Source: a bacterium | Lineage (GTDB): Bacteria; Patescibacteriota; Minisyncoccia; Moranbacterales; GWC2-37-73 | Direction of reading: 5' to 3' | DNA length: 64,000 nt | Assembly: GCA_037140955.1 (NCBI GenBank) | Contig: JBAXDL010000001.1 | Span: forward strand, 114,319 to 178,318 | In this document: positions 10,607 through 30,174 of the stretch, piece by piece | Layout of the letters: each line of letters starts with the position of its first letter | Position numbering within the stretch: the stretch's first letter is position 1 | The notes under the pieces: generated by a model | What the model saw: the letters and a program-made list of their open reading frames with translations, nothing else | Told to the model about the DNA's origin: nothing | Databases searched by the model: none | Translations under genes and position numbers: made by a program

Positions 10607-10709
10607 AATTTTTAATTTTTACAATTTTTAATTTTATAAATAAATTATAATGTTTTAATTTCCTTTTCAAAGGATAAGCTTGAAGCAAAAAACATTGAAA
10701 ATTCAAAAA

Positions 10710-11810: not shown

Positions 11811-12983
11811 TTAGTCAGCAATGCAACGAACAGACATGGCTGTTGCTTGAAGGTTGAGATTTGATGATATGATATCACCAGCAGCGTTGCTGCCAAAAAA
11901 CAAAGAAGTAAGAGTAACACTGCTTACGTTTTTTATAGCTGTTGATGAATAATAATGACCGTCAGTGTCCACATGATTTATTGTTCCATTGTAGGTACGA
12001 AATCCAGCAGGAACTAATTTTAGTTTTGAAGAATAAAGCTTACCCTTACAATCAAAGCCGAAGTAACAATTTTTAAATCCTATACCAGTAAGAAGAAAAT
12101 CCCATTCTGCAAATGTTGGAATATGAAATCCGTCAGGGCATGGATTACTGATACCAGGCGTGTTTGAATTTGTCAACCAAAGCTCAGTATTTACCTGCGT
12201 ATCAGGAAGCCAGCTAGAATAACTATAGCCAACCGGAGGTAGCCAAAACGGTGACTCTATAAAGCTTTCAGTATATGGTGCTACTACATTGTAAGATGAG
12301 TCTATTGTGACCTTATCATATTTTATAACACTACTTAATGCTAAAGGCGAAGGCTGCCCTCCCCAGGCTGTATATTGATGACCATCAGCTTTTCTGCCCC
12401 ATTGAAAATACCAACCATAGCCAGCATCATCAGTGGCTGAAGTTGGCAGGTCTTTTGCTCCCAAATTCCTATCCAACCAACATCTACCATCTTCAGCTAA
12501 AACTTTTCCGTAAGTAATTCCATCTTTAGAAACTGTTCCCGTGCAATCAACTCCAACCTTAACACTGACAGACCTGGCTGTTCCATTGTATGTTGCGACT
12601 GATTTAATAATTTTAACATCATTTCCCTTGCTGGTGTTGCAAATAATCGGAACCATTGCTGCTAGATCAGAATATAGATAAAGGTCATATCTTCCTGCTC
12701 CAGGAATTGATAAATTCTTAATCACACCATTATCGCAGGTGCTAAAAACAGGAATAGTATTTATTACTGAAGTTAAATTACTGCCAGCATTAATAGTTTT
12801 GATTGCAAGTTGAGCTCCACTATCAGCTGTTTGCAAAGATTGTACCGAGGAGGATGTTGCACTGGCTGATTTTTTTTCTATTATTGTTGATGAGGAAATA
12901 GCCACTGCAATAGATAGCATCATGCCAAGGACAATGAGAGAATATGCTAGGATGGAACCTTGTTTTTTGTTGCTTTTGAACAT
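11811..12983 (-). CDS. secreted/membrane-anchored protein with C-terminal Fib_succ_major-type domain (paralog A)
   Basis: N-terminal signal-anchor; C-terminus CPDGFHIPT..EWDFL...SVRCIAD resembles the Fibrobacter major paralogous domain. Confidence 0.55.
   Translation of the reverse strand: MFKSNKKQGSILAYSLIVLGMMLSIAVAISSSTIIEKKSASATSSSVQSLQTADSGAQLAIKTINAGSNLTSVINTIPVFSTCDNGVIKNLSIPGAGRYDLYLYSDLAAMVPIICNTSKGNDVKIIKSVATYNGTARSVSVKVGVDCTGTVSKDGITYGKVLAEDGRCWLDRNLGAKDLPTSATDDAGYGWYFQWGRKADGHQYTAWGGQPSPLALSSVIKYDKVTIDSSYNVVAPYTESFIESPFWLPPVGYSYSSWLPDTQVNTELWLTNSNTPGISNPCPDGFHIPTFAEWDFLLTGIGFKNCYFGFDCKGKLYSSKLKLVPAGFRTYNGTINHVDTDGHYYSSTAIKNVSSVTLTSLFFGSNAAGDIISSNLNLQATAMSVRCIAD
12346..12972. repeat. 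627-bp perfect direct repeat, copy 1 (identical to 13517-14143)
   Basis: identity read base-by-base; covers the N-terminal ~209 codons of paralog A. Confidence 0.9.
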
Positions 12984-13023: not shown

Positions 13024-14172
13024 TTAGTCAGCAATGCAACGAAGCGACAATCCAAAATAGCGCCAAAGTGGACCAGCACCAATTTGATTATTATCAATAA
13101 TCGTCCAAAACATTTGATATTCATGACTAAATGGAGGACTAACCGTCCAAAAATAACCAACCTCACCCTTTCTCTCAATGCTCGCATAAGCATTTCCTCG
13201 ATAACCAGCGGATACAAATTTTAATTTTGAATTAAATGCTGGTACTATGCAGTTAGTGTTACAACCATACAGCCCAGCACTATTCAAAAGCTGCGCAAAT
13301 TCTTGCTGAGTTGGAACACGAAAGCCTGATGGACAAGGGTTATTACTACTTGTAAGATCCCAAAGACTATTGTCCTGTAATGTATCAGGAAGCCAATCAA
13401 ATTTACTAAATAGTGCTGGATTTCCATCTGCACCCAAAAAATATGTATTATACGGCGGCTGAACCTCATGATTAACTATGATTGCAAGATTATTCATCAC
13501 AGAGCTACTCAATGCCGGCGAAGGCTGCCCTCCCCAGGCTGTATATTGATGACCATCAGCTTTTCTGCCCCATTGAAAATACCAACCATAGCCAGCATCA
13601 TCAGTGGCTGAAGTTGGCAGGTCTTTTGCTCCCAAATTCCTATCCAACCAACATCTACCATCTTCAGCTAAAACTTTTCCGTAAGTAATTCCATCTTTAG
13701 AAACTGTTCCCGTGCAATCAACTCCAACCTTAACACTGACAGACCTGGCTGTTCCATTGTATGTTGCGACTGATTTAATAATTTTAACATCATTTCCCTT
13801 GCTGGTGTTGCAAATAATCGGAACCATTGCTGCTAGATCAGAATATAGATAAAGGTCATATCTTCCTGCTCCAGGAATTGATAAATTCTTAATCACACCA
13901 TTATCGCAGGTGCTAAAAACAGGAATAGTATTTATTACTGAAGTTAAATTACTGCCAGCATTAATAGTTTTGATTGCAAGTTGAGCTCCACTATCAGCTG
14001 TTTGCAAAGATTGTACCGAGGAGGATGTTGCACTGGCTGATTTTTTTTCTATTATTGTTGATGAGGAAATAGCCACTGCAATAGATAGCATCATGCCAAG
14101 GACAATGAGAGAATATGCTAGGATGGAACCTTGTTTTTTGTTGTTAAAAAAGGTTTTATTTTTTTTGAACAT
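13024..14172 (-). CDS. secreted/membrane-anchored protein with C-terminal Fib_succ_major-type domain (paralog B)
   Basis: N-terminus identical to paralog A; divergent C-terminus NPCPSGFRVPTQQEFAQL...SLRCIAD. Confidence 0.55.
   Translation of the reverse strand: MFKKNKTFFNNKKQGSILAYSLIVLGMMLSIAVAISSSTIIEKKSASATSSSVQSLQTADSGAQLAIKTINAGSNLTSVINTIPVFSTCDNGVIKNLSIPGAGRYDLYLYSDLAAMVPIICNTSKGNDVKIIKSVATYNGTARSVSVKVGVDCTGTVSKDGITYGKVLAEDGRCWLDRNLGAKDLPTSATDDAGYGWYFQWGRKADGHQYTAWGGQPSPALSSSVMNNLAIIVNHEVQPPYNTYFLGADGNPALFSKFDWLPDTLQDNSLWDLTSSNNPCPSGFRVPTQQEFAQLLNSAGLYGCNTNCIVPAFNSKLKFVSAGYRGNAYASIERKGEVGYFWTVSPPFSHEYQMFWTIIDNNQIGAGPLWRYFGLSLRCIAD
13517..14143. repeat. 627-bp perfect direct repeat, copy 2
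   Basis: identical to 12346-12972. Confidence 0.9.
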
Positions 14173-14227: not shown

Positions 14228-14800
14228 CTACTTCCTACCAAGGCTCTTAAGCGCAAGTTTCACTCTCTCTCCAACGTCTTTAATCTCAACAGGAATTAGT
14301 TTGAGCGCTTCGCGTGACTCTGAAACAGAATATCCCATAGCAACAAGTGCCTCAAAGGCATCTGAGTCACTTTCAAGTTGTGCTTTTTCATAAATTGGCA
14401 TTTCTTTGATTTTATTTTTGAGTTCCAAAATAACCCTCTGAGCGATTTTCTTTCCAACACCTGAAACCCTAGTCAAAATTGATGGATCCTCATTCAAAAC
14501 GGCCATACCAATCGTTTTTGGATCAGCAATTGCCAAGATTCCCATCGCAGCTTTTGGTCCAATTCCTGAAATTGAAATCAAAAGCTCAAACATTTCCAAT
14601 TCAGCAATTTCCACAAATCCATACAATGCCAAAGTGTCTTCTCGCACATATGTATGAGTGTATAATTGCACAGATTGAGCGCCGGCAATCATCCCAAAGG
14701 TGTGCACAGTAACAAACACTTTATACCCAACCCCATTCACATCAATAATAGCATAGTTGTCATGCAACAAATCTATCTTGCCTGTTAATTTTGCAATCAT
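14228..14800 (-). CDS. ruvA: Holliday junction DNA helicase RuvA
   Basis: MIAKLTGKI...GVGYKVFV N-terminus; HhH motifs. Confidence 0.9.
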   Translation of the reverse strand: MIAKLTGKIDLLHDNYAIIDVNGVGYKVFVTVHTFGMIAGAQSVQLYTHTYVREDTLALYGFVEIAELEMFELLISISGIGPKAAMGILAIADPKTIGMAVLNEDPSILTRVSGVGKKIAQRVILELKNKIKEMPIYEKAQLESDSDAFEALVAMGYSVSESREALKLIPVEIKDVGERVKLALKSLGRK

Positions 14801-14824: not shown

Positions 14825-17134
14825 TTAAACAGCAGGAACAACAGGTGGAATAACTGGATCCGGAACAACAACAGGATCAGGCTCTGGAATCTTAAAATAT
14901 TCTGATTTACAATCAATAGTTGGCAACGGATCAAGACTTTTATTTTTCTTTTTATTGTCCTTTAGCCAACCTTGTACGCCCTTTTCCCAATTTTTATACT
15001 GCAAATCAGCAGTAGGATCTTTTGGCGCATCGCCACGTGGATTTTCTTTGTTTATGTAATACAAAATATCATGCACATCACCAAATGTTTTTTTCTCGGT
15101 GGTGTCTGATGGGCAAGAATCATTTTGCAAGCAATAATCTCCCTTGTAACCTCTAGCAGTCATTAAGCAAACCTTCACATCTTTTTGAATATTTTCTTCT
15201 CCGTTTAGTACTGGCTTTCCAGTATCCTCTTTTTCATATTTTGGGAATTGCTCAACCATACTGTTTCCCAATGCTTGATTCATGAAAGATCTCCAAATTG
15301 GAGCTGCAACAACAATACCATCAGATCCAACCTTCATTGATGAATTATTGTTGTTTCCAGCCCAAACACCAACAGCAATTGAAGGAGTGAATCCCATTGC
15401 CCAACCATCACGAAATTCATTGGTTGTTCCAGTTTTGGCAGCAACTGGACGATCTGTAAATTTGAATGGATTGTTGTCTCCAAACACCGGAGCGCGATAT
15501 TCATTAGTGGACATGATGTGATCAAGCATGGCAACATATTTTTCTTCCACAACTCTTTGACCAGGATTGTCTTTATATTGTTCAAGCACGGTTCCATCTT
15601 TGTCTTGAATTTTCATGATCGCCACACTATCACGATGCACACCACCAGCAGCCAAAGCGCCATAAGCATTAACATGATCAAGCAAAGTAACCTCTCCTCC
15701 ACCCAACACTAAAGACAAACCGTAACGATCGGGCTCATTCAATCCCTTGATGCCAAGACCTTTTGCAAGAAAAATTGAATCCTTAACTCCTGCCAAATAT
15801 AGGGTCTTAACTGCTGGAATGTTTAGTGACATTGCCAAAGCATTTTTCATTTGCAGTGGACCATGAAATTTTCCATCATAATTTTGCGGAGAATAGTCTT
15901 TTCCAGTATCAGTAGAAAAATTGGTTGGCACGTCATACAGTAATGTTTCTGGAGTATACCCTTTAGTAAAAGCAGTCAAATAAACATACGGCTTGAAAGA
16001 TGAGCCTGGTTGACGATTAGCAAGAGCAACATTAACCTGACCATCAATAGATTTGTCAAAATAATTTTTACTACCAACCATGGCCAAAATTTGACCAGTT
16101 CTTGGATCCTCAGCAACCAAGGCAGCATTTGCTGCTTTGTTAGGAGCATTTTTTGCAGCACCCTCTGAAACAGCCTTTTCTGCAGCTTGCTGCTTGTCCC
16201 AATCAATTGTTGTATAAACTTTCAATCCTCCTTGTTCAACGGCTTGTTCACCATATTTGTTCACCAAATAATCTTTCACATACATCACAAAATGAGGAGC
16301 AGAAATATTGTCTTGCTTTGGATTAACTTCTGCCAAAATATCAACACCCTTAGCATCATCAGCTTGCTGCTGTGTGATATATCCCTGATCAGCCATTTTT
16401 TGCAAAGCAGAACTTTTTCTTCCAACCAATGCATCAAGATGAGAACCAAAAGGAGAATAGTACGTTGGCGCATTTGGCAAAGAAGCAAGCAATGCTGCTT
16501 CCGGCAAAGTCAAATCTTTAGCATTTTTTCCAAAAAAAGTTTGTGCAGCAGCCTCGATTCCATAAGCACTAGAGCCATATGGAATCTGATTCAAATACAT
16601 CGCCAAAATTTCATCTTTTGAATATTTTTGTTCAAGCTCAATTGCTAAGATCAATTCTTTGATTTTTCTGATAATTGTTTTTTCACTAGTAAGCATGGAC
16701 ACCTTAATGAACTGCTGGGTGATTGTGCTTCCTCCCTGCGCCGCTCCACCCTTAATGATATCTTTAAGGGCACTACGCAAAATAGATTTTGGATCAACGC
16801 CATGGTGAGTATAAAACCCCTGATCCTCCAATGCTATGGTGGCATATTTAACATTGTCAGGAATTTCATTGAAAGGAACAATTGTTCTTTTCTCTTCTCC
16901 ATGCACATCATATAGCAAGTGCTCACCTGTTCTGTCGTATATTTTAGTGGATTGAATAATCAACTTTGCATCAAGCGAACTTGCACTTGGCAAATCTTTT
17001 GCAAAATACAAAAAAATACCAACAACAGAAATCACACCCAGAGCAAAAAGTGCTCCCAGAATTTTTGCAGCAAGTTTTAGCTTGCTCTTGTGTGTGCTAT
17101 TTCTAAAATTTTTTGAAATAAAAACTGGTTCCAT
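14825..17134 (-). CDS. penicillin-binding protein 1A (bifunctional transglycosylase/transpeptidase)
   Basis: GT51 motifs (EDQGFYTHHG); SXXK (SSFKP); KTG; Pro-rich C-terminal tail. Confidence 0.9.
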   Translation of the reverse strand: MEPVFISKNFRNSTHKSKLKLAAKILGALFALGVISVVGIFLYFAKDLPSASSLDAKLIIQSTKIYDRTGEHLLYDVHGEEKRTIVPFNEIPDNVKYATIALEDQGFYTHHGVDPKSILRSALKDIIKGGAAQGGSTITQQFIKVSMLTSEKTIIRKIKELILAIELEQKYSKDEILAMYLNQIPYGSSAYGIEAAAQTFFGKNAKDLTLPEAALLASLPNAPTYYSPFGSHLDALVGRKSSALQKMADQGYITQQQADDAKGVDILAEVNPKQDNISAPHFVMYVKDYLVNKYGEQAVEQGGLKVYTTIDWDKQQAAEKAVSEGAAKNAPNKAANAALVAEDPRTGQILAMVGSKNYFDKSIDGQVNVALANRQPGSSFKPYVYLTAFTKGYTPETLLYDVPTNFSTDTGKDYSPQNYDGKFHGPLQMKNALAMSLNIPAVKTLYLAGVKDSIFLAKGLGIKGLNEPDRYGLSLVLGGGEVTLLDHVNAYGALAAGGVHRDSVAIMKIQDKDGTVLEQYKDNPGQRVVEEKYVAMLDHIMSTNEYRAPVFGDNNPFKFTDRPVAAKTGTTNEFRDGWAMGFTPSIAVGVWAGNNNNSSMKVGSDGIVVAAPIWRSFMNQALGNSMVEQFPKYEKEDTGKPVLNGEENIQKDVKVCLMTARGYKGDYCLQNDSCPSDTTEKKTFGDVHDILYYINKENPRGDAPKDPTADLQYKNWEKGVQGWLKDNKKKNKSLDPLPTIDCKSEYFKIPEPDPVVVPDPVIPPVVPAV

Positions 17135-17265
17135 AGTAAAAAATAATAATAGATAAAACGTATATTCATTATAAGCCGATAATGCTTTTTTTCAAAGCTG
17201 CTTTACTATACACTAATTATTAATTTTATCAAGATATCCAACATATATCTTTCTTGATCAATATA

Positions 17266-17290
17266 AAAAATCTGTAACTCACTTGTTACA
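17266..17290. terminator. bidirectional hairpin terminator
   Basis: AATCTGTAAC-TCACTT-GTTACAGATT flanked by A/T runs. Confidence 0.45.
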
Positions 17291-18310
17291 GATTTTTTCA
17301 TACAATTCTAAATAATTTTTTGCCATAACAAGGCTATCAAAATTATCCTTAGCGTATTTCCTACATTCTTTCCTGTCAAATTTGTCAGTGTTCTTCACTG
17401 CGGTAACTAACTCAGCAAAATCATCAGAAAGAAAGGCTATTTTTTCATTTTGTAGCATTTCCGGCAAGGGCCCGATAGTTGTGCCAATAATAGGAGTTCC
17501 GCAAGCCAGGGCCTCTCCCACCACCATAGGGCAAACTTCCGGCCTCCTGATTGGCAAAAGCAAAGCTGATGCACTTTTTAAGTATTCATAAATTTCCACA
17601 TGCGAAACTTCTCCCATATAGATTATATTTATCCCATCCAAAAATGGTTCTATTTTTTCTGCAAAAAATGCTTTTCTCTCCTTGGTGTTTCCGATTCTGC
17701 CAAAAATTAGTAATTTAACACCTGACTTTATTGCAATTTCAATAGCAGTATCTATCCCTTTTTGATCATTCAATCTTCCAACAAACATCAAATACTCCCC
17801 TTTTTCAAAAGAATAGCTTATTTTTTTTGTTGGCACTCCGTTATAAATAATCGCATCTGTTTTTAAAGTTCCTGATTGAGATTGACTGAGTGCATTAGTA
17901 TATAATTTGGTTTTTTCTATAATCTCAAAGGCAGCATCATCAATTCTGTTGTGAAAAGAAAGTAGACATGGAATTGAAACTTTTTCGCACAATGCGCTAG
18001 CATATCGCTGGGAGTGCAAGTGAATGATGTCAAAATCGCTTTCAAATTCTAAAACTTTTTCCTGACTGGCGATTTTTATATCCCTAAAGTCTCTTGGACT
18101 GAGCTTGGAAATGCTTGGCATGTTCCAAATACTTTTTTCTAATGAAACAATGTGTTTTGCTTTTGTGTGCCAATCACCTGGAGCAAACAAAGTCACATCA
18201 ATACCAAGCTCCAAAAAAGCATCTGTTAGATTCTGCGTAACAATCTCAGGACCACCCGTATCACCAAAAGGCGGGGCAACCATAGCAACACGCAGTTTTT
18301 TATTTGTCAT
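17279..18310 (-). CDS. glycosyltransferase family 4
   Basis: GT4 N-terminal and C-terminal Rossmann motifs. Confidence 0.7.
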   Translation of the reverse strand: MTNKKLRVAMVAPPFGDTGGPEIVTQNLTDAFLELGIDVTLFAPGDWHTKAKHIVSLEKSIWNMPSISKLSPRDFRDIKIASQEKVLEFESDFDIIHLHSQRYASALCEKVSIPCLLSFHNRIDDAAFEIIEKTKLYTNALSQSQSGTLKTDAIIYNGVPTKKISYSFEKGEYLMFVGRLNDQKGIDTAIEIAIKSGVKLLIFGRIGNTKERKAFFAEKIEPFLDGINIIYMGEVSHVEIYEYLKSASALLLPIRRPEVCPMVVGEALACGTPIIGTTIGPLPEMLQNEKIAFLSDDFAELVTAVKNTDKFDRKECRKYAKDNFDSLVMAKNYLELYEKICNK

Positions 18311-19260
18311 TATAATAACTCACTTATAGATTCAAAGTTTTCTTGTTTTGTTTTTTCATCTGCAAGCATTGTGACAAGATCAATGCCTGGAGTGGTGTTC
18401 ATTTCAATGAAATATGGTTTTCCGAAGTTATCAAAAATAAAATCCAGTGAATATTGAGGATTGTGAAAAACATTAATTTTCTTGTTTATTCTTTTCAGTA
18501 TTTCTTCTAAGTTTTTTGGAATAAGATCAAGTGAAATCATTTTTCCACTAGCACCTTGATGCAAGTTAGTGAAAAGTGATTTTGGTGCAGCAATACGAGA
18601 AAGAGCATAGGCCAATTTTCCTCCTTGATATACAAGCCTCAAATCTGCAATTTCAGTTTCTTTTGAAATTCCAGGAATTCCTTTTTCGCTCAAAACAAAT
18701 TCCTGCACCAAAACGGGAAAAGAATAATTTTCAGACAATGCTTTTTTTCTTTCTCCAATAAAAATACCAAAACCACCAGAACCATACAGTGGCTTAATTA
18801 CAATTTTTTCAGCTGAAAATTTTCCTATTGCCGCAATAAGTTCAGCTTTATTGTTTGCGACTTTTGACATTGGCATAAACTCACCAAACATCACGTATTG
18901 AGACAACTTATTGTTAAAAGTTGCTCGAAAAAGTGGAGAATTAAAAAGAATAGTTTTTTGTGCCATTTGAAGCTTGAATTCTAGCATTGGATAGTCATAT
19001 TTGCTCAAAATTTTATCATACACCAAATCAGGTGAAATTTCTTTTTCTATTTTTTCCCAAACATTATTTCGATAAGCCCAAGCTTTAGTGAAAACATTTT
19101 TTTCAAGATCATACCATTTAATACTTGCTCTATACAATTCAATATTAGCTTTCTCAGCTCTTTTCATCCAATCTTGCACAGCCAACCTGGTTCCCTCGTT
19201 TGTAATAGGAATTTCTTTTTTCCAATCATCACCTGCATATGCAATAACAATATTTTTCAT
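18310..19260 (-). CDS. ATP-grasp domain protein
   Basis: VIKPLYGSGGFGIFI...LVQEFV ATP-grasp motifs. Confidence 0.6.
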   Translation of the reverse strand: MKNIVIAYAGDDWKKEIPITNEGTRLAVQDWMKRAEKANIELYRASIKWYDLEKNVFTKAWAYRNNVWEKIEKEISPDLVYDKILSKYDYPMLEFKLQMAQKTILFNSPLFRATFNNKLSQYVMFGEFMPMSKVANNKAELIAAIGKFSAEKIVIKPLYGSGGFGIFIGERKKALSENYSFPVLVQEFVLSEKGIPGISKETEIADLRLVYQGGKLAYALSRIAAPKSLFTNLHQGASGKMISLDLIPKNLEEILKRINKKINVFHNPQYSLDFIFDNFGKPYFIEMNTTPGIDLVTMLADEKTKQENFESISELL

Positions 19261-19293
19261 ACTTTTTAGCTAACATTTATTCAATCAAACTAA

Positions 19294-20730
19294 CTATTTA
19301 TTAACATCAATCAAAAATTTTCTCAGATTTCTTTTGCCAACTATTATGGGATATTTTAGATGTGAGCGATTTATCAAGGTCACTCTAGTTGGAATAATAA
19401 GATTATCCATGACTAATGTTATTTTAATGGTTGGTCGATAAGTTGCGCCACTAGCAGACTTGATCACAATGGTGCTTTCAAGATGAGGAATGTGTTTATA
19501 GATATCCCAGCGCTCTTTTTTACTAAGATGAGCAATGTCTGCATATGAAGTTTGAATTTCGCGAAAAGCTTTCACAGTGTCTTCGAAGCCTAGCTGCTCA
19601 GCCAAGTCCATGTCTATTGAAGTAAAGCCAGCCCCCGTGTCAATTTTCGCTTCAACCTCAACAAATTTTCCATTGAGGCCAATCAGCTTCACTTTTTCAA
19701 TTGCAGCAATAACTTTTCTTCCTGAAATTTCCTCCAACTCTTCTTCAATTTCACCACCAAACAAATCTTGACCCACACGAACTCCACGCTGAGCTGTTTT
19801 TATCTTCAAACCCTTGATGCGTTCCAGCCTTTCGCGCAAGCCACTCAAATTGGCAACCTGAATTGAGAGACCTGGACGCGCATTGATTTCCAAAAAAACA
19901 GGACCACGCTCACGATCAATGGCAACATCAGCACCCAAAAATCCCATGCCAGAAATTTCTTGAGCCTTAACAGCCAAAAGCAACATTTCTTTCCAATATG
20001 GAATTTTGATTCCAGAAAGCAACATACGAGTGCCTGGGACATAGTCTATAATCTTTCCCTTTCCAAGCACAGCTGTTGTTGTCACACCAGTTGCCAAATC
20101 AATTCCAATGCCAATTCCACCTTGTTGCAAGTTGGCCTTTCCGCCAGATTCCTTTGTTGGAAGACGAAGCATGGCCATCACCGGAATACGATTAAAAACA
20201 ATCACGCGAATATCAGGAATTCCCTTATAAGCATAGGGCTTGAACAATTTCAAAAGCGTTAGGCGCTCTTCAAAAAATGCAATGTCTGGCATGTTGGCCA
20301 AAGAAAATGCACCATCCAAAATATTTAAAATATGACTTTTTAAGTCTTGCACTGTGACCTTGCTTCCATCTGACTTTATCCAAACAGGCAATGGAAATTC
20401 GGTTTCCCCATTTTCATTGATCAATCCTTTCCCATTGTTTTTCTTTCTTCCATATACAACTAAAATTCCTCCACCACCATATCCACGATTTGGCTTGAGA
20501 GCAAAACTTGCAGGCAAAGAAAACCAATCGAAATTTTCCAATTCATCTGCTGTTCTTATTTTTGCAAGCAATTTTGGCACTGGAATTCCAGCCTTTTTGA
20601 GCATCCTTTTGCTCAAAATTTTGTCATCAGCCAATTTCTTTGCTTTTTTTCTATTGTATGGACGAATATAATCAAGATTGCGAGCATTCATGCCGAGCAA
20701 TTTGTTTCCATTTTTGATAAATTCAAACAT
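19294..20730 (-). CDS. RimK-like alpha-L-glutamate-ligase-type ATP-grasp fused to a retropepsin-like (DUF785) C-terminal domain
   Basis: N-terminal LKPNRGYGGGGILVV ATP-grasp; C-terminal AKIDTGAGFTSID aspartyl-protease-like motif. Confidence 0.6.
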   Translation of the reverse strand: MFEFIKNGNKLLGMNARNLDYIRPYNRKKAKKLADDKILSKRMLKKAGIPVPKLLAKIRTADELENFDWFSLPASFALKPNRGYGGGGILVVYGRKKNNGKGLINENGETEFPLPVWIKSDGSKVTVQDLKSHILNILDGAFSLANMPDIAFFEERLTLLKLFKPYAYKGIPDIRVIVFNRIPVMAMLRLPTKESGGKANLQQGGIGIGIDLATGVTTTAVLGKGKIIDYVPGTRMLLSGIKIPYWKEMLLLAVKAQEISGMGFLGADVAIDRERGPVFLEINARPGLSIQVANLSGLRERLERIKGLKIKTAQRGVRVGQDLFGGEIEEELEEISGRKVIAAIEKVKLIGLNGKFVEVEAKIDTGAGFTSIDMDLAEQLGFEDTVKAFREIQTSYADIAHLSKKERWDIYKHIPHLESTIVIKSASGATYRPTIKITLVMDNLIIPTRVTLINRSHLKYPIIVGKRNLRKFLIDVNK

Positions 20731-20758
20731 AGTTGGAATAATTAAAAAGACAAAAAAA

Positions 20759-21415
20759 CTATTTTAAGTTTTTCAAAACTTCATTGAAGCGAATATATTC
20801 ATTCAAGCGCAACCCATCCCATTTTCCCAAGAAAATATTAATTGGAATAGTGATCAAAATCAACCAGGGAAATGCGACAATGCCAGCAATCAAGAGCGAC
20901 CAACTAGCAAGATAATATCCAACCAAAGAAATGACCAGGGTTTCTATTGCCAAAATCATAGCCGCGCGATTTCCCTTTTCAATTTGCGTTGCCACAAATT
21001 TTTCCACAATTGTGATCATAATCAAAATTGGAAAAATTGAAACAGCAGCCAAGCCTGTCCTGTGCATTGAACCACCAAGACCAAGCAAAATCAAAATTGA
21101 AAATGCAATAATACTAAGAGTAATTGCCACACGTGGAAGATACAAAATGCGCAAACCCTTCAGTGCAAAGCGCAAAAGCATTCCAACCAAGATAACCACA
21201 ATAAAAATAACAACTCCGTAGCGAAGTTGTGGCACTGCCAAAAATGCAAAGGTTACAATAGCAGGAGTGTAGATTCCAAAAGCCTTGATCCCAATCACCT
21301 GACGAAAAAAAGCAATCAAAGTTACAATAATTGGTAACATTAAAAGAAGCACCACTGTGTCAAAAGGCACGCCTTGAGCAATAAAATATTTAATAAGTGG
21401 GCTTACGTTTTCCAT
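20759..21415 (-). CDS. 7-TM membrane protein (7TM_transglut-like, no transglutaminase domain)
   Basis: 218 aa, ~7 helices; gene neighbourhood with the RimK-like ligase and retropepsin-like protease. Confidence 0.4.
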   Translation of the reverse strand: MENVSPLIKYFIAQGVPFDTVVLLLMLPIIVTLIAFFRQVIGIKAFGIYTPAIVTFAFLAVPQLRYGVVIFIVVILVGMLLRFALKGLRILYLPRVAITLSIIAFSILILLGLGGSMHRTGLAAVSIFPILIMITIVEKFVATQIEKGNRAAMILAIETLVISLVGYYLASWSLLIAGIVAFPWLILITIPINIFLGKWDGLRLNEYIRFNEVLKNLK

Positions 21416-21420
21416 AGCTA

Positions 21421-21570
21421 TGCTCAGAATTTTAAATTATAAATTTGAAATTTTAAATAAATGATAAAATTTTCAAATTTAAGAATTAAAACATTTAAAA
21501 TTCAATTAAAATTTAAAATTTGTAATTTAAAATTATAGTCCCTAATTAAAACCAACAACAATAATCATCC
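21421..21570. repeat. AT-rich low-complexity array (AATTTTAAATTT-type) flanking ruvC
   Basis: a similar array lies at 22066-22185 and 10606-10660. Confidence 0.4.
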
Positions 21571-21574
21571 ACCA

Positions 21575-22063
21575 TCAGCCTTTAATCTCCCTCATCTTTC
21601 TACTATTAATATGGCATAGCGCGATTGCAATGGCATCGGCGGTGTCGTCTGGTTTTGGAATTTCCTTGAGTTTCAAAATATTCTTTACCATGAGCTGTAT
21701 TTGCTTCTTCTCTGCCCTGCCATATCCCGTCAAAGCCTGCTTGACTTGGAGCGGTGTATATTCAAATATGCTAACACAAAATCTCTCAAGTGTCAAGAGT
21801 ATTGACCCCCTTGCTTGGCTAACTTTCATGACAGTTTTCACATTTTTAAAGAAAAATAAATCCTCCACTGCAGCCTCCTGGGGCCTATATTTCTCAATTA
21901 TTTGCTCCAGGTCCCTGACAACCTCAAAAAGTCTTTCTGCGGTGGTATTTTTTGGTGAAGTTGTAATATGACCATATGCAACAGCACTAACTTGTCCCTT
22001 GATTTCATCTAAAATAGCCCAACCAACAATAGCAGTTCCAGGATCGATACCCAAAACCCTCAT
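21575..22063 (-). CDS. ruvC: crossover junction endodeoxyribonuclease RuvC
   Basis: MRVLGIDPGTAIVGWAIL N-terminus. Confidence 0.9.
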   Translation of the reverse strand: MRVLGIDPGTAIVGWAILDEIKGQVSAVAYGHITTSPKNTTAERLFEVVRDLEQIIEKYRPQEAAVEDLFFFKNVKTVMKVSQARGSILLTLERFCVSIFEYTPLQVKQALTGYGRAEKKQIQLMVKNILKLKEIPKPDDTADAIAIALCHINSRKMREIKG

Positions 22064-22065
22064 GG

Positions 22066-22185
22066 TTTCAGGTGAATTTTTAATTTTTAATTTTAAATTT
22101 TTAATAAATTTTTAATTTTTAATTTCAAATGTTTCAGACATTTAATCATTGAGGCTTCATTCGAAATTCAAAATTTTTAATTCAA
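22066..22185. repeat. AT-rich low-complexity array (TTTTTAATTTT-type)
   Basis: degenerate tandem AATTTTTAATTTT units. Confidence 0.4.
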
Positions 22186-22215
22186 AATTACAATTTGTAA
22201 TCAGCAGATTACAAA
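22186..22215. terminator. perfect palindrome ACAATTTGTAAT-CAGCAG-ATTACAAATTGT overlapping the yebC stop
   Basis: 30-bp hairpin. Confidence 0.45.
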
Positions 22216-22925
22216 TTGTCGTATATTTCCTGCACATCATCATTTTCATCCAATTTTTCCAGAAGTTTTTCATATTCCAATTGCGTTTTTTCATCAAGCT
22301 CAGTTTTTTGTGTTGGAAAATATACCAACTCAGCACCCTGAACCTTAAGTCCAGCCTTATCAATATTTTCCTTAACATTTTGCAATTGATCCATTTTAGT
22401 ATAAACAATCACAACATCATCTTCAAAAGCAATGTCTTCTGCTCCGGCTTCAATGGCAATCATTTCGAGATCGTCCTGTTTGCTTTCCCCAATTGAAACA
22501 ACAATACTTCCAATCAATTTGAACATAAACTTCACACCACCTTCTGCTGCTGGCTTTCCACCGCCCTTGGTCAAAATGCTTCGCACTTCACTTCCTGTTC
22601 TGTTTCGATTGTCAGTGGCGGTTTTGATTAACATCGCCACATTTCCTGGACCATATCCTTCATAGATAAGCTCTTCAATTTCAGCGCCATCTTTAAGTTC
22701 GCCAGTTCCTTTCTTGATGGCTCTTTCAATGGTATCCTTAGGCATGTTTTCAAATCTTGCCCGATCAATAGCCATCTGCAATTTGAAGTTCATTTCAGGT
22801 TTTCCGCCGCCCTCCTTGGCCGCAATTGTGATCAATCGTCCATACTTAGTAAAAACATTTGCCCTCTTTGCATCATTAACACCTTTTCTTTGCTTTATTC
22901 CAGCCCAATGTGAATGTCCTGACAT
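22209..22925 (-). CDS. yebC: YebC/PmpR family DNA-binding regulator
   Basis: MSGHSHWAGIKQRKG N-terminus. Confidence 0.9.
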   Translation of the reverse strand: MSGHSHWAGIKQRKGVNDAKRANVFTKYGRLITIAAKEGGGKPEMNFKLQMAIDRARFENMPKDTIERAIKKGTGELKDGAEIEELIYEGYGPGNVAMLIKTATDNRNRTGSEVRSILTKGGGKPAAEGGVKFMFKLIGSIVVSIGESKQDDLEMIAIEAGAEDIAFEDDVVIVYTKMDQLQNVKENIDKAGLKVQGAELVYFPTQKTELDEKTQLEYEKLLEKLDENDDVQEIYDNL

Positions 22926-23359: not shown

Positions 23360-23395
23360 ATGGGATCCTCCAACGCCTTTTTTATTTGGAAAAAT
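23360..23395. terminator. bidirectional terminator AAAAGGCG...CGCCTTTTTT
   Basis: hairpin with A and T tails. Confidence 0.45.
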
Positions 23396-25379
23396 AATTC
23401 AAAAGCATGTTCAGCTTTAGATTAAATGCGGCAGGAATATTCCTAAGAAAGGTCACTGTATAATGTTCATGCTCTTCATTTTGTGGGGTGAAAAAATAGA
23501 CTCCATCGATTTCATGCATATTTTCCATTTCAAGAGTGCCTGGCTCAACTTTCAATAATTTAATTTTAACACTCTGATTATAAAGCAAAGCAAATTTATT
23601 TTTTTTCTTGATCTCATTTTGAGAAACAACCACTTCTTCTGCTTTATTTTCTACAATCTCCTCATCATTTTGATTATTAAATTGTGCTTCTTGTTGCAAG
23701 GATTGATCTGGGACAAAAATTTCTATTGTTGAATTTTGCATTTTGGGTTTTGGATTTTGTAATATCCATTTCCAGCCCACCCCTTTTACTTTCACATATC
23801 TTTCTCCTTCGGCAATTGAGCCTTCAGCGGCCTTGTATTTAACCTCATGTGCAACTTTTCCGTCAGGATAACGCAATTGTATTTTTGCTTTGGTGTTGTT
23901 GAGCGAAAATCTTGCCACCTCATTGTTGAGTTGTTTTTCTTTTTTCCCTTTGATAATAACGTCTTGTCTGATTGGATGATTCACAAATTTTTTCCAACCC
24001 GTTGCCACACTCCAACCATTTAGATTTATTTTTTTCTTAGTTTTATTTTCCACAGTTATCGATTCGCTGCCTCCATCAGAACCAGCCGGATTAGCATCAA
24101 TGGCCACAATCTTAATTTTTGGATGCGAACATTCTTTCACTTCAACAATAAAATTTTTCACAACATCCTCATTTCCATCAGTGATTTTTACCATTACTTG
24201 ATACTTACCAGTGTTTGAATACTTATGGGTTGTTTTTGCAAGATAACTTTTGTGTCCATCGCCAAAATCCCAAACAACTTTAATGCTTTCACCATCAATG
24301 TCGCCAGTGGAAATAAAAAAACTAGCATAGACATCCACAAAAACATCGTCATCAATTTCAAGCTCACCAAAAGGAAGATTGTTGAAAATATTTTCCAGAC
24401 CTTTTGTTAGAAATTTTGTCCAACGCCAAACAAGTCCATCAAAGCTGAATGATTTTCCCTCTTTGGCGCTTGGATATGTTGCCATTGAGACAGTTTCTCC
24501 ATTTGGATTTTTAAGCTCTACTGTTTCAGTTCCACTATCATTAAGTTCAAGTGTGCAATTTTTTTCAGGTTCATCTTCCACAACCAAAAATTTTTTGTTC
24601 TCAATACTTTTTCCATCAAGCAAACAAACATTTTTTCCATAGTCAACAATTTTCCAACCATCAAGCACAATTTTTTCACCAGAAGAATTGAAAAGTTCCA
24701 CATATTCTCTTTCATTTGTATTTTTGTTTGGATGTGGGTAGAGCTCATTTAGAAAAATTCCATTGGGATATTTTATTTTTTCTTTTTCAGTGAATTTTTT
24801 GTTTTCTTTTCCTGGAGAAGGATTTTCCAAAAGCACAAAATCCTCAGAATTATTGCCGGTGTCTTTTCCATCAAGTCGACCATAACTCTCACCATCCAGT
24901 GGCTGGGTGAAGGGCTTTTCTTTGAAGCTTTTTGCATCTCCCCAACCAACCAAATCAAGCAAGACTCCACTTTTATCAAGAAGACCAACTGTATTGTTTG
25001 CAGCAATTGAATATGACGAACTTGAATAATCCAAATCAGCTTTTATTTCTTGTTTGTATTGAGGATGAGCAATAACAAAAAAATTATGTGCGCCAATTGT
25101 TCCTAAAAAATGAGTTGCACTTACCAAAGAAGAAAAATCATTTCCACTTTCTGTTTTTTTCATTAATTTGTATCCACCTAAAGAAACATCTTCACTGCCA
25201 TCATTATATAGCTCAACAAATTCATTTTTGGTTGATTTTTGGTCGCCTATCAAAATCTCATTGATAACTATTTTCGCCTCGGCAACTCGAAAAACAAAAA
25301 ACACCGCCAAAAGCAGTGTCAGAAAAATTTGATGACAAAAAAATAAGCTGGTTATTTTTTTTCTTCTTTTCTTTTTCAT
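23382..25379 (-). CDS. large secreted lamin-tail-domain (LTD) repeat protein
   Basis: signal peptide; VINEILIGDQ...FVELYNDGSEDVSL and a second LNELYPHP...YVELFNSSGE LTD motif; PKD-like segment. Confidence 0.6.
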   Translation of the reverse strand: MKKKRRKKITSLFFCHQIFLTLLLAVFFVFRVAEAKIVINEILIGDQKSTKNEFVELYNDGSEDVSLGGYKLMKKTESGNDFSSLVSATHFLGTIGAHNFFVIAHPQYKQEIKADLDYSSSSYSIAANNTVGLLDKSGVLLDLVGWGDAKSFKEKPFTQPLDGESYGRLDGKDTGNNSEDFVLLENPSPGKENKKFTEKEKIKYPNGIFLNELYPHPNKNTNEREYVELFNSSGEKIVLDGWKIVDYGKNVCLLDGKSIENKKFLVVEDEPEKNCTLELNDSGTETVELKNPNGETVSMATYPSAKEGKSFSFDGLVWRWTKFLTKGLENIFNNLPFGELEIDDDVFVDVYASFFISTGDIDGESIKVVWDFGDGHKSYLAKTTHKYSNTGKYQVMVKITDGNEDVVKNFIVEVKECSHPKIKIVAIDANPAGSDGGSESITVENKTKKKINLNGWSVATGWKKFVNHPIRQDVIIKGKKEKQLNNEVARFSLNNTKAKIQLRYPDGKVAHEVKYKAAEGSIAEGERYVKVKGVGWKWILQNPKPKMQNSTIEIFVPDQSLQQEAQFNNQNDEEIVENKAEEVVVSQNEIKKKNKFALLYNQSVKIKLLKVEPGTLEMENMHEIDGVYFFTPQNEEHEHYTVTFLRNIPAAFNLKLNMLLNYFSK

Positions 25380-25405: not shown

Positions 25406-25993
25406 TTAGTCATCTGCTCCTTGAATTTTTTCCTTTATCATTTCTCCAATTTCTGCCGTGTCATTGTCTTGCTGCTTTCTTTGCAGCTCCAAAATAATAT
25501 TTTTAACATGATATGGATCAGAAACTGTTCTAAAGATGAACTCACCTTCTTCTGCTGCTGTTTGAATTTTCACATCGCCAAAATTTAGCATAGTGGGAAT
25601 TATACCCTCAACTTGAGTGGTCACATCTTGAATTTTTTCATAACGCAGCTCGCTAACCTTTCGCATGAACAGCCCTTTTTGTTCAATATTAACAATGCGC
25701 TGAGCAGTGATCACCCAAACATCAAAATAATAATCAACCCAAATCAAAAAACCAAACAACCACAAAGCAAGCAAAACAACATTTTCAAAAAACAATGTCG
25801 CTGCCCTATAATTGTCCGCCAGCATGTCAGGAAAAAGCAGCGGAAAATACAAAACAGCGCCAACAAAAACAACCAACATCAAAATCAAAAAGAAATATTG
25901 CTGCAAAAGATAAAACCAATTGCGATGATAGACATACAAAATTTCATCGCTTTCATCCAAATCCTTGAAGTGATAATTTTCAAATTCTTTCAT
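25406..25993 (-). CDS. membrane protein with bacterial PH-like domain (YdbS/DUF304-like)
   Basis: two N-terminal TM helices then a PH-like region. Confidence 0.45.
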   Translation of the reverse strand: MKEFENYHFKDLDESDEILYVYHRNWFYLLQQYFFLILMLVVFVGAVLYFPLLFPDMLADNYRAATLFFENVVLLALWLFGFLIWVDYYFDVWVITAQRIVNIEQKGLFMRKVSELRYEKIQDVTTQVEGIIPTMLNFGDVKIQTAAEEGEFIFRTVSDPYHVKNIILELQRKQQDNDTAEIGEMIKEKIQGADD

Positions 25994-26281: not shown

Positions 26282-27292
26282 CTATGACAATTTTTGCAAG
26301 TTTGCTTCTGGCATGTCAATTCCCATGTGCAAATATCCATGCTCGGTGACCATGCGCCCTCTTGGGGTGCGCACAAGAAAACCAAGTTGAATCAAAAACG
26401 GCTCATACACATCTTCAATGGTTTCAATCTCTTCTGATGTTGCAGCTGCTATTGTTGAAATTCCCACTGGTCCACCATTGAATTTTTTGATAATAGTTTC
26501 CAAAATGTAGCGATCAGTTGGTTCAAGACCAAGATGATCGACGTCCATCATTTCAAGTGCTTTTCTGGCAATCACACTGTCAATCAGTGGATGATCATTG
26601 ATTTGAGCAAAATCACGAACTCTTTTGATGATTCTGTTTCCAACACGTGGAGTTTTGCGACTAGAAATTGCAATTTCGCGAGCACCAGTTTCATCTAATT
26701 CTATTCCCAAAATTTTTCCGGAGCGATGAATGATGTTTTTCATCTCATCTTCATTGTAAAATTCAAGTCGATGAATCGCACCAAAACGATTGCGCAGCGG
26801 ATTGGAAAGCGCGCCAAGTCGAGTTGTGGCACCAATCAAAGTGAATTTTGGCAGATCAAGTTGCAATGTTCGCGCTGATGGACCTTTTCCAATAATCACA
26901 TCCAATTTGTAATCTTCCATAGCAGGATATAAAACTTCTTCAATCAATTTGTTCAATCGATGAATTTCATCAATAAAAAGAACATCACCATCTTGCAAAT
27001 TGGTCAAAATCGAGCCAAGGTCGCCAACTCTTTCAATGGCAGGACCAGATGTCACCTTGATGTTAACACCCATCTCTTTGGCGATAATATGAGCCAGGGT
27101 TGTCTTTCCAAGTCCAGCCGGCCCATACAAAAGCACATGTTCAATTGATTCACCTCTTTTCTTGGCAGCATCAATAAACATCTGCAAATTTTTGCGAATT
27201 TTTTGTTGTCCAACATATTCACTCAAGCGCTGTGGACGAAGCGTGTTGTCCAAAATGACATCATCCTCTTGCTCTTCTGAAGTAGTAATCAT
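26282..27292 (-). CDS. ruvB: Holliday junction DNA helicase RuvB
   Basis: [12 protein letters not shown]...[14 protein letters not shown] Walker A; AAA+ RuvB. Confidence 0.92.
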
Positions 27293-27824: not shown

Positions 27825-28589
27825 CTAATTCTTTGGCAAGGTGTTCCAAAGAAGATCGAATGTCAGCTTTTGCAAGTCAGCAAGTTCTTTTGACTCAATT
27901 AAGGTCGCCATTTTTTCCTTCCAAGAAACAATAAGTATTTTGTTGTTATAGATGTTTACCTCAGGAGAAAAGCTCATTTTCTCATCAGGCAAAAAACGTG
28001 TATCGCGCATTTCTTCTTGATTAAATGGCACTCTTTCCATTGATAACTTATTTCTTGGAATAATAGCTTTAATAAAAATCTTACTTCCCGCGCGACGTTT
28101 GTAATATTCTGGAAAAAAGTTTGGCAAAGCTGCATGCATTGTTTCAGCATTAGCATATGCCAAAATAATTTCCTTAGATGTCAGCGTGTCTTCATAGGCC
28201 TCGCGCATCCCCTTTTCACCCTCAAAAAACTGCACTTTTGGTTTGCTTGCACTAAAAATATTCTGCATGGATATTAGTTGTGGCAATAGCTGTGAAACTT
28301 TGTTTTTTTGTTTTTCAATTTCTTTTTGTTTTTCTTCTTTTTCCCTCTCAAGGTATTGCAAAAGATTTTTAGGATCAAGTGCATTAAAAAAGGTGCCTGC
28401 TCCCTTTTTATACTTACTTACAAGGCCTTTTTGCATCAAAAGTTCACAAATGTCATATACAGTCGTTCTGTTTAGTCTTGTCTTTTTGGCCAAATCGCCA
28501 GGCTTTTTCGAGCCAACTTCCAAAAGCGCCAAATAAACTTGGGATTCTTTTTCAGAAAAATTCAGCTCTTTTAACAAGTTTTTTATCAT
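27825..28589 (-). CDS. TrmB-family HTH transcriptional regulator (paralog 2)
   Basis: ELNFSEKESQVYLALLEVG...RLNRTTVYDICELLMQKGLV; own promoter TTGACA-17-TATAAT upstream. Confidence 0.6.
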   Translation of the reverse strand: MIKNLLKELNFSEKESQVYLALLEVGSKKPGDLAKKTRLNRTTVYDICELLMQKGLVSKYKKGAGTFFNALDPKNLLQYLEREKEEKQKEIEKQKNKVSQLLPQLISMQNIFSASKPKVQFFEGEKGMREAYEDTLTSKEIILAYANAETMHAALPNFFPEYYKRRAGSKIFIKAIIPRNKLSMERVPFNQEEMRDTRFLPDEKMSFSPEVNIYNNKILIVSWKEKMATLIESKELADLQKLTFDLLWNTLPKN

Positions 28590-29397: not shown

Positions 29398-30174
29398 CTA
29401 TTTAACGCTATTCCAAACAATCTCAAACATTGATTTGTATGTCTGCGCAACATCACTGCTTTCAATTACCACAGCCATAGGCTCATCTTTAAAAGAAAAG
29501 ATGGCCAATTTGTTTCCAAAAATAATATTATCGGTTGGGAAAAGACACTCTTTTGGTGCAAATTTGATCTGATGAATGCCTTGCTCTCTTCTGTTTGTAT
29601 ATTCAATAGATTCCTTGTCTGATTGTAAAAGTTCGCGCACCCTTGTTTGATTTTTGGCAATATCGGCAAAATGTTTTTCTGCTTTTGCCAAAAGCTCTTT
29701 TGGAATTGCACCCAATGAGGCAAAGATGTCGATTTCTTTTTCTTTAAATATTTCATCATACAATTTCACTACGCTTTCACCACCTTGATAATATGTCACC
29801 TTTGGCTTTTCTTTCTTAGTATTGAACATTGCCATAAGCTCTGGCATATTGGCTTTTATAAGTTGCTGTTTCTCTCTCTGCTCTTCCAAAAGTTGTTCAG
29901 GGGAATTGGCAGTATAGAGAACTTTTGCCTTGCGTGGCAAAAGCATTACCAATCCTTTCATGCGAAGTTCTTCCAAGAGCAGATAGGTTGTTGGTCTTTT
30001 TGTCCCAGCTTTGACCGAAATTGCAGGAACTGAGCCTTTTCCCATCTGCAAAACAGCCAAGTATACTTTGGCTTGTTTTTCATTGAGTCCTAAATTCATC
30101 AGCACTTCTTCGAGTTGCATATTCTTTTCTTTGTCATTCCGGGCTTGACCCGGAATCCAGGCCCGCATTTTCAA
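29398..30174 (-). CDS. TrmB-family HTH transcriptional regulator (paralog 3); true start probably at 30120 (MQLEEVL...)
   Basis: LGLNEKQAKVYLAVLQMG...TKRPTTYLLLEELRMKGLV; the first 18 codons of the ORF are read through the MITE-like repeat. Confidence 0.6.
   Translation of the reverse strand: MKMRAWIPGQARNDKEKNMQLEEVLMNLGLNEKQAKVYLAVLQMGKGSVPAISVKAGTKRPTTYLLLEELRMKGLVMLLPRKAKVLYTANSPEQLLEEQREKQQLIKANMPELMAMFNTKKEKPKVTYYQGGESVVKLYDEIFKEKEIDIFASLGAIPKELLAKAEKHFADIAKNQTRVRELLQSDKESIEYTNRREQGIHQIKFAPKECLFPTDNIIFGNKLAIFSFKDEPMAVVIESSDVAQTYKSMFEIVWNSVK

Follow-up and report, generated by a model that had tools for sequence, protein, structure and literature searches.

What does a cluster of two ATP-grasp ligases, a retropepsin-like protease, a seven-transmembrane (7TM) protein and a glycosyltransferase (GT) do in an uncultured, ultra-small bacterium of the candidate phyla radiation (CPR, or Patescibacteria), and how did it come to lie among the ruv genes? 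The question is raised by a 64,000-nucleotide stretch of DNA, hereafter the window (NCBI GenBank assembly GCA_037140955.1, contig JBAXDL010000001.1, positions 114,319 to 178,318 of the forward strand), from a member of the Moranbacterales (GTDB lineage Bacteria; Patescibacteriota; Minisyncoccia; Moranbacterales; GWC2-37-73). Four co-directional minus-strand genes fill positions 17279-21415 of the window according to its open reading frames (ORFs), and the same four are called on ENA ERZ27300110, a public contig of identical sequence. In the order of transcription they encode a stand-alone 7TM protein (20759..21415; 218 aa), a ligase::retropepsin fusion (19294..20730; 478 aa), a second, small ATP-grasp enzyme (18310..19260; 316 aa) and a GT4 glycosyltransferase (17279..18310; 343 aa). 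The intergenic gaps measure 28, 33 and -1 nt, the last representing a one-base overlap at 18310, where the stop TAA of the second ligase and the start ATG of the GT4 gene form TAATG, and the GT4 gene would thus be translationally coupled to that of the second ligase. About seven hydrophobic segments occur in the first protein, with none in the three enzymes. A first-pass annotation had described a tight co-directional block of four genes, two of which share nucleotide 18310, and had named the families 7TM_transglut, DUF785 (PF05618), two ATP-grasps and GT4; the ORFs, the public gene calls and the profile searches agree with it on each of these points. The block is probably the Moranbacteria form of the Rlo/Rim systems, in which ATP-grasp ligases and retropepsins make and trim acidic peptides.

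Two characterised systems bear on this interpretation. The rloABC operon of Pseudomonas aeruginosa, for which genetic and biochemical data are available, encodes a retropepsin that is secreted and cuts polyglutamate (Lormand et al. 2025, PMC12239564), along with an inactive-transglutaminase-7TM protein and an ATP-grasp enzyme (PMC12239564). Roles of the Rlo system in hypo-osmotic stress tolerance, cell shape and biofilm formation, as well as β-lactam phenotypes of Pseudomonas mutants, have been reported (PMC12239564). Loss of rloB or rloC suppresses the defects of cells without the RloA proteases (PMC12239564), and this rescue implies that RloB and RloC make or handle something that the proteases must check. 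In the Rim system, RimK makes poly-α-L-glutamate, while RimB trims the polyglutamate and stimulates its synthesis, and a RimB-RimK hybrid (RimBK) is known and has been studied likewise (Little et al. 2025, PMC11957791). The statement of the first-pass annotation that systems of this type have no characterised function was thus overtaken in 2025 by the work on RloABC and RimBK.

The fusion protein combines an RloC-type ATP-grasp ligase domain (aa 11-309; 19804..20700, minus strand), an acidic inter-domain linker (aa 323-343; 19702..19764) and a retropepsin-like domain (aa 346-478; 19297..19695), and matches the Pfam families PF14397 (ATPgrasp_ST; 222 bits) and PF05618 (RimB-like/Zn_protease, the former DUF785; 42 bits). 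The best family match of the ligase domain by far is TIGR02291, with 274 bits over model positions 12-294 of 317 and a curated cut-off of 314. In a Foldseek comparison, its top matches are RimK structures (7qys and 5zct), followed by cyanophycin synthetase, Ddl and ArgX, with PsnB-type (graspetide) ligases among the distant fold matches. Residues K79, E154/E155, D268, E281, N283 and R285 are invariant in 36 sequences and, as the ATP-grasp catalytic residues are kept in both ligases of the block, both look active. The fusion recurs in 120/120 homologues listed. Homologues are full-length, share 65-100 % identity and nearly all carry both domains, with the named sources being metagenome-assembled genomes of Candidatus Moranbacteria, Parcubacteria and Patescibacteria. 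An AlphaFold 2 (AF2) model shows two confident domains (mean predicted local distance difference test score, pLDDT, of 77), and the fusion is predicted to be cytoplasmic because it has no hydrophobic segment.

Of the RloA and RimB models, the one for RloA3 gives the protease domain its highest score (NF052264; 38 bits, cut-off 210), above RloA2, RloA1 and RimB, and its closest solved structures are 9G58 (E 9e-5) and 9G59 (E 0.0045), the RloA-family crystals of PMC12239564. Its catalytic DTG (19633-19641) forms part of a DTGA motif (aa 364-367) that is invariant in 81/81 orthologues. In RloA, D48 is catalytic and K46, R114 and R137 hold the polyglutamate, with the substitutions R114A and R137A abolishing function (PMC12239564). 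Assuming a 20-residue offset for the signal-peptide numbering of 9G58, K362, D364, R432 and R455 of the window protein align with RloA K46, D48, R114 and R137, and all four positions are invariant, or K/R, among the orthologues. The closest structures, the DTGA motif and the basic residues suggest an active protease that is directed at polyglutamate. The linker, which follows the pattern LFGGE[IV]EEE[LVI]E[ED][IL]SG[KR][KR]VIG, is near-invariant in the alignment of the 81 orthologues, while the protease domain is only 59 % conserved per column. It is predicted to be disordered, with an AF2 pLDDT below 50 for aa 326-342 and no secondary structure. Since relatives of the protease cut glutamate-rich sequences, the linker could represent a cleavage site or a pseudo-substrate.

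The 7TM protein matches PF14402 (7TM_transglut) with 98 bits. Against the NCBIfam model for RloB (NF052267; cut-off 900) it scores 85 bits, with only RloB positions 313-508 of 508 aligned (the last 196 residues), and thus corresponds to the membrane half of an RloB homologue without the transglutaminase ectodomain. The charge distribution suggests an N-out/C-in topology. Its homologues (120 matches listed) are of constant length and 73-90 % identical. The 7TM gene lies directly 5' of the ligase gene in 76/76 genome loci with DNA at this position and in approximately 64/66 metagenome loci with enough upstream DNA, including nineteen loci that encode the triple fusions described below, and overall this adjacency is kept in more than 140 loci. 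The pairing also occurs in relatives at 38-48 % identity that have no ruv and PBP1A neighbours, and its survival in such distant loci indicates that the link between the 7TM protein and the ligase is general and probably functional. The N-terminal part of the 7TM partner is modular, being absent in the 218-223-aa forms and represented elsewhere by an extension of approximately 90 aa without a Pfam match. In the distant relatives L090:6395-7966 and L103:6441-7970, an N-terminal PKD domain stands at the place of the inactive transglutaminase of RloB, which suggests that the outward-facing module of the 7TM protein is exchangeable.

The 7TM gene and the fusion gene are the fixed part of the locus. 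In 58 loci compared from the fusion gene through PBP1A, the intervening stretch is 1.1-5.9 kb long and of highly variable content, with 47 different gene arrangements. The first-pass annotation had treated the four genes as one unit, but the ligase and GT4 genes of the window constitute one of many cassettes. The small ATP-grasp family to which the second ligase belongs is represented by one to three tandem genes in 56/58 loci, giving 98 copies in total, and comprises at least nineteen subfamilies at 40 % identity. Only the catalytic residues are invariant among 99 aligned small ATP-grasps, the pattern expected if substrate specificity has diversified. The second ligase of the window shows weak YheCD, GSH-S and RimK matches, with all NCBIfam scores below the cut-offs, and by sequence its closest solved structures are those of Pseudomonas RimK (7qyr/7qys; E ~1e-6). 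The GT4 enzyme has the Glyco_transf_4 N-domain (PF13439; 39 bits), the Glycos_transf_1 C-domain (PF00534; 77 bits) and the E258-x7-E266 motif of its family. Among solved structures it is closest to TeGSS, a glucosylsucrose synthase (7FG9/7FGA; full-length match with E 3e-37), with tetrahydrobiopterin (BH4) glucosyltransferase and BshA coming next; all of these act on small soluble acceptors. GT4 genes are found in 13/58 loci, nearly always right after a ligase of the window-type subfamily, which they abut or overlap. Other cassette genes encode MATCAP/QEGLA (DUF1704) metallopeptidases, GNAT proteins and 490-aa carboxylase-type ATP-grasps (six loci each), the Mur-ligase-like M-domain half of cyanophycin synthetase and YdjC deacetylases (four loci each), DUF3541 proteins (three loci), RimK-DUF3541 fusions (two loci) and a further GT. 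The window therefore carries a recurrent minimal cassette of a ligase and a GT4, alongside a slowly evolving core of the 7TM and fusion genes. The stand-alone M-domain gene, found at L061:3886-5157 and in three other loci, matches TIGR02068 positions 481-860 with 177 bits and adjoins small ATP-grasp genes in 3/4 loci. Together they look like a split cyanophycin-synthetase-like arrangement in CPR genomes.

The association of these families extends beyond the Moranbacteria locus. An exhaustive search of 1.8 billion cluster representatives yielded 2150 clusters at E < 1e-3, and among the best 150 of these three main classes could be distinguished: fusions like that of the window, approximately forty-two proteins in which more than 260 residues follow the ligase domain (mostly ~750-930 aa), and stand-alone RloC-like ligases of ~300-330 aa. 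The long class adds a MATCAP, a YdjC or a second ATP-grasp domain to the ligase and retropepsin, and such natural fusions indicate that the cassette families are functionally tied to the core ligase. The DTG of the retropepsin has been lost (DTS or no aspartate) in P0379, P0386, P0400 and approximately thirty other cluster representatives, a loss affecting most of the ligase-retropepsin-MATCAP triple fusions of ~780-816 aa. This suggests that in the triple fusions the metallopeptidase took over trimming, with the retropepsin fold kept as a scaffold. A metagenome scan seeded with MATCAP fusions added a further 80 loci. Among the loci below 48 % identity (n = 47), ruvC is adjacent in four and PBP1A in one, and this loss of adjacency identifies the ruv/PBP1A neighbourhood as lineage-specific synteny. 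In three distant loci (L149, L146 and L159) the gene 3' of the ligase again encodes a RimK-like small ATP-grasp.

If the block is a form of the Rlo/Rim systems, the amino acid used, the product and its export, the order of steps and the roles of the 7TM protein, the second ligase and the GT4 may be proposed by analogy with them. The ligase domain would catalyse the ATP-driven, stepwise addition of L-glutamate or a similar acidic residue, so that short α-linked acidic peptides form in the cytoplasm, whether as free molecules or attached to a carrier's C-terminus. As a dimer, the protease domain would cut the acidic chains, setting their length or releasing them. The 7TM partner would anchor the process at the membrane, where it might move the product outward or link the reaction to an envelope signal. 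This product may be extended by the second ligase with another kind of residue and by the GT4 with a hexose, and other strains would swap these two enzymes for other ligases, MATCAP-type carboxypeptidases, GNAT, YdjC or M-domain proteins. Several points weigh against this proposal. All NCBIfam scores fall under the curated cut-offs (RloC 274/314, RloB 85/900, RloA3 38/210), and the amino acid specificity of ATP-grasp ligases is not readable from sequence. The protease is predicted to be cytoplasmic whereas RloA is secreted, and thus the division of labour must differ from that in Pseudomonas. The DTG is lost in about half of the wider family, which implies that proteolysis by the retropepsin is not essential to the system everywhere. 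A transport role for the 7TM protein is a guess: a profile search of the PDB sequences with the 7TM alignment found no solved relative, and the AF2 model of this protein, built with thirty homologues, is poor (mean pLDDT 58). Finally, the name of PF14397 ("sugar-transfer associated"), together with the GT4, YdjC and GNAT genes, would also fit the amidation of a sugar polymer.

This last possibility, although improbable overall, is for these reasons the strongest rival. It holds that the locus decorates a surface glycopolymer, with the ligases amide-linking amino acids to uronic acids or amino sugars of an envelope polysaccharide, the GT4 building the polysaccharide, the 7TM protein handling the polymer at the membrane, and the retropepsin having a side role or being a relic. 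PF14397 is named the "sugar-transfer associated ATP-grasp", and the coupling of the GT4 to the second ligase, the YdjC deacetylase, GNAT and further GT of the cassettes, and the resemblance of the 47 architectures among 58 loci to the variability of surface-antigen loci can be accommodated by it. However, GT4 genes are restricted to 13/58 loci while the core is universal, the closest solved GT4 relatives use small soluble acceptors, and a priming transferase, flippase and polymerase were not seen in the block or among the cassette families. Many cassettes carry MATCAP peptidases and not sugar enzymes, and the catalytic and polyglutamate-binding residues of the protease are kept in 81/81 orthologues.

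A second possibility, also improbable, makes the fusion a polyglutamate machine that is self-contained and self-primed, with the GGEIEEELEE of the linker as the retropepsin's own cleavage site. The linker would be cut as in a retroviral polyprotein, giving a free protease and a ligase with a Glu-rich C-terminus that would then be extended; the protease would clip off acidic oligomers, the 7TM partner would hand these to the cell surface, and the strain-specific ligases, peptidases and GT4 would give them a variable "signature" for an episymbiotic lifestyle. The conservation and disorder of the linker, the co-variation of its acidity with the catalytic motif and the modular 7TM ectodomains are compatible with this proposal. 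The co-variation was seen among 76 cluster representatives with a long C-terminal tail, in which D/E were counted in sixteen linker residues: the median is five where the catalytic D[TS]G is kept (n = 39) and two where it is lost (n = 37), a difference that is significant (Mann-Whitney p ~1e-8) before any correction for shared ancestry. Counting against the self-primed machine, besides the want of a phylogenetic correction, is the substrate requirement of the known proteases, as RimB needs at least 5-6 (PMC11957791) and RloA at least eight contiguous glutamates (PMC12239564), while the linker offers only EEE and EE runs.

Peptidoglycan would be the substrate if the ligases altered stem peptides or cross-bridges together with the neighbouring PBP1A (14825-17134), which is very doubtful. 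Such a role would agree with the cell-shape and β-lactam phenotypes of the Pseudomonas Rlo mutants, with the Mur-ligase-fold gene found in some cassettes, and with the position of the PBP1A gene, which in most Moranbacteria loci follows 1-6 kb downstream in the same orientation. In the window, however, PBP1A appears to be a separate transcription unit. An intrinsic-terminator-like hairpin (17265..17298, minus strand) lies over the GT4 stop codon and marks the operon end, with an RNA fold of -15.5 kcal/mol (z = -4.6; 0/200 shuffles fold as well), and it is followed by a sigma-70-like promoter match (11/12) for PBP1A at 17195-17168. This hairpin, the terminator at the yebC stop and the promoter match delimit the four genes as one predicted transcription unit, starting from the AT-rich spacer at 21416..21574 (minus strand), the 159 non-coding nucleotides 5' of the 7TM gene. 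This spacer is a likely promoter region, in which only a weak sigma-70-like match occurs (21457-21429). PBP1A is, furthermore, on the opposite strand in L018 and L022 and adjacent in 1/47 of the more distant loci, where the 7TM gene stays, and the Mur-fold gene matches the cyanophycin synthetase M-domain and not MurC-F. A functional link to PBP1A, considered initially, was downgraded as its adjacency proved lineage-specific in the distant loci.

Modification of the tail of ribosomal protein S6 (RpsF), as by RimK and RimB, deserves slightly less credence again. The ligases would add glutamates and the retropepsin remove them, thereby tuning translation. Both ligases have RimK as their closest solved relative, and the second is named a "putative ribosomal protein S6 modification protein" in some database entries; the protease is like RimB in being cytoplasmic, and there is the precedent of the RimB-RimK hybrid. 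Nevertheless, the rimK_fam (TIGR00768) scores of the fusion (52.8 bits) and the second ligase (34.4 bits) are far under the cut-off of 143.4, the fusion ligase matches the RloC-type TIGR02291 much better, and the domain order is the reverse of that in RimBK. A dedicated 7TM membrane partner is universal, and the one to three divergent ligase paralogues, with cassettes of GT4, MATCAP or M-domain genes, fit poorly with a single ribosomal target. A search for rpsF in the 64-kb window did not find it.

The first-pass annotation had further proposed that the block is inserted between ruvA and ruvC, interrupting the ruv order, and that a second insertion separates yebC from ruvB. The neighbours it named are in place, with ruvA at 14228-14800, ruvC at 21575-22063, yebC at 22209-22925 and ruvB at 26282-27292, in addition to PBP1A. 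That the block is a recently acquired genomic island could be argued from the closer spacing of ruvA, ruvB and ruvC in many bacteria, the AT-rich, repetitive spacers around ruvC, and the variation of the second half of the block, the ligase and GT4, between strains. It is nonetheless highly improbable. The window proteins were mapped onto 80 genome loci with fusion homologues of 47-87 % identity. Nearly all of these loci keep the order ruvB-(small ORF, bPH, LTD)-yebC-ruvC-7TM-fusion-variable-PBP1A-(ruvA), with the ruv-7TM-fusion-PBP1A order holding down to ~50 % identity and ruvC upstream of the 7TM-fusion pair in 67/72 loci. Within the band of 55-75 % identity, RuvB has a median identity of 72 %, RuvC of 64 %, the 7TM protein of 65 %, the fusion of 62 %, PBP1A of 63 % and YebC of 54 %; as the values for the 7TM protein and the fusion match those of RuvC and PBP1A, the core evolves like the surrounding housekeeping genes. 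GC content and skew are without discontinuity at the block, Pfam scans of the neighbouring ORFs showed no mobility genes, a check of the window repeats showed no sequence repeated on both sides of the block, and the sole RNA element from the Rfam and tRNA scans of the window is a tRNA-Ser (1934-2019). The conserved order, the housekeeping-like divergence and the unremarkable composition thus argue strongly against the proposed insertion. The block is instead an old, conserved part of the Moranbacteria lineage genome.

The supposed second insertion fares no better, since the bPH gene next to ruvB and the LTD gene beyond it are conserved likewise. The region at 23.4-26.2 kb holds the LTD/PKD protein, the bPH_2 protein and a 73-aa ORF. 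The bPH_2 protein (25406-25993) stays beside ruvB in most relatives (37-69 % identity), while the LTD protein (23382-25379; 665 aa), with three lamin-tail domains and a PKD domain, is far more divergent (27-51 % identity) and missing from some relatives. Membrane proteins with LTD domains have been noted in operons of Patescibacteria in a recent preprint. AT-rich arrays had also been placed on the flanks. Those at 21428-21534, within the spacer upstream of the 7TM gene (AATTTAA x15.6 by Tandem Repeats Finder), and at 22075-22125, between ruvC and yebC (AATTTTT x7.7), are present, with none occurring at 17.1-17.3 kb. The 13-mer AATTTTTAATTTT has fifteen matches in the window with one mismatch allowed, against 3.95 expected, and the same 7-nt AT pattern is seen elsewhere in the window, for example at 10607-10635. 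Among relatives, the spacer between ruvC and the 7TM gene ranges from 8 to 360 nt (median 76 % AT), and this wide variation in length indicates that the heptad array itself is not conserved. The arrays were considered as insertion scars and rejected, as they flank ruvC and not the block and the host spacers vary widely in length; they could be promoter-associated or simply low-complexity spacer.

A graspetide cluster, a type of ribosomally synthesised and post-translationally modified peptide (RiPP) locus in which the ATP-grasps would cyclise a ribosomal precursor and the protease remove its leader, can be given next to no weight, for despite the common RiPP layout of ATP-grasp, protease and membrane protein and the distant PsnB-type fold matches, there is no same-strand ORF of at least 20 aa in the operon spacers or beside the operon, the gaps are 28, 33 and -1 nt, and the best matches are RloC and RimK and not graspetide maturases. 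An anti-phage defence system was likewise considered and is unsupported, with no match to the PADLOC models.

Other features of the window were noted in passing. A perfect palindrome with a 13-bp stem (ACAATTTGTAATC…GATTACAAATTGT) at 22190-22219, at the yebC stop, scores as a terminator in either direction. Scattered along the window are TrmB-family regulators, among them at least four full-length paralogues with 26-35 % mutual identity (27825-28589, 29404-30114, 43587-44324 and 47145-47870) and one short fragment (5537-5707), and copies of this family recur near yebC in many related loci. Downstream of ruvA are two tandem paralogues (11811-12983, 390 aa; 13024-14172, 382 aa) that are 77 % identical; both match the Fibrobacter succinogenes major domain (PF09603) only below threshold.

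In Pseudomonas, antibiotic tolerance, cell shape and the formation of biofilms all depend in part on the Rlo system, and the CPR form bears on the question of its substrate and product. In this form the system is reduced to one membrane protein and one ligase::protease polypeptide, and hosts with genomes of ~1 Mb, which have shed most dispensable genes, still keep the pair, which evolves as slowly as RuvC. This would imply that the 7TM-ligase pair is the functional heart of the system, that the protease works beside the ligase, and that the ectodomain of the membrane partner is exchangeable. The compact two-gene unit may thus offer an experimental handle on the product. The hypervariable cassette of amidoligases, peptidases and GTs may be a source of molecules that differ from strain to strain in CPR bacteria, a group for which very little is known of surface chemistry or of interactions with hosts.

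In the open-access literature, no description was found of a C-terminal fusion of a retropepsin to an RloC-type ligase, of a 7TM partner without transglutaminase, of housekeeping-like conservation of the 7TM-fusion pair in a CPR lineage, or of a hypervariable amidoligase cassette. The general type of system was anticipated: Iyer, Abhiman, Burroughs and Aravind reportedly predicted in 2009 (Mol Biosyst 5:1636) the neighbourhoods of ATP-grasp amidoligase, 7TM-transglutaminase and DUF785 genes for peptide synthesis and peptide tagging, which the block fits, and PF14397, PF14402 and PF14398 are said to have been defined from that work. The profile matches for all four genes place the block among these predicted ATP-grasp amidoligase systems, as the first-pass annotation had proposed.

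The closest parallels are with Rlo. Like it, the block encodes in one operon the PF14402 7TM module found in RloB, a retropepsin of RloA type with the DTG and the basic polyglutamate-binding residues, and an ATP-grasp for which the RloC-type TIGR02291 is the best family match, at a score below the cut-off. It differs from Rlo in that the protease forms the C-terminal part of a cytoplasmic ligase polypeptide without a signal peptide, no periplasmic inactive-transglutaminase domain is joined to the 7TM protein, the operon adds at least one RimK-like ligase and here also a GT4, and the host is a CPR bacterium rather than a proteobacterium. The pairing or fusion of a cytoplasmic retropepsin with an ATP-grasp glutamate ligase is shared with RimBK, in which, however, the protease is N-terminal to a true RimK; the opposite domain order and different ligase type indicate that the window fusion arose independently. 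The Rim systems, moreover, are without a membrane partner and target ribosomal protein S6. A third parallel is the TTL/TTLL-MATCAP/carboxypeptidase cycle, with the bacterial QEGLA/DUF1704 proteins, in which an ATP-grasp ligase and a MATCAP-family metallopeptidase work in opposite directions on an acidic C-terminal tail; among relatives of the window locus MATCAP is fused to the same ligase or encoded in the cassette, whereas the window's own cassette is without a MATCAP gene. Similarly, CphA1 builds a non-ribosomal poly(amino acid) with an ATP-grasp and a Mur-ligase-like M-domain, is among the top fold matches of the fusion ligase domain, and has its M-domain represented by the stand-alone gene of four related loci, although there the activities are divided among genes and no N-domain is present, and the window itself does not encode the M-domain. 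The components and the general logic are known from these systems, and the block appears from its domain composition to be a rearranged relative, and as such an architectural variant, of the Pseudomonas Rlo/Rim polyglutamate systems.

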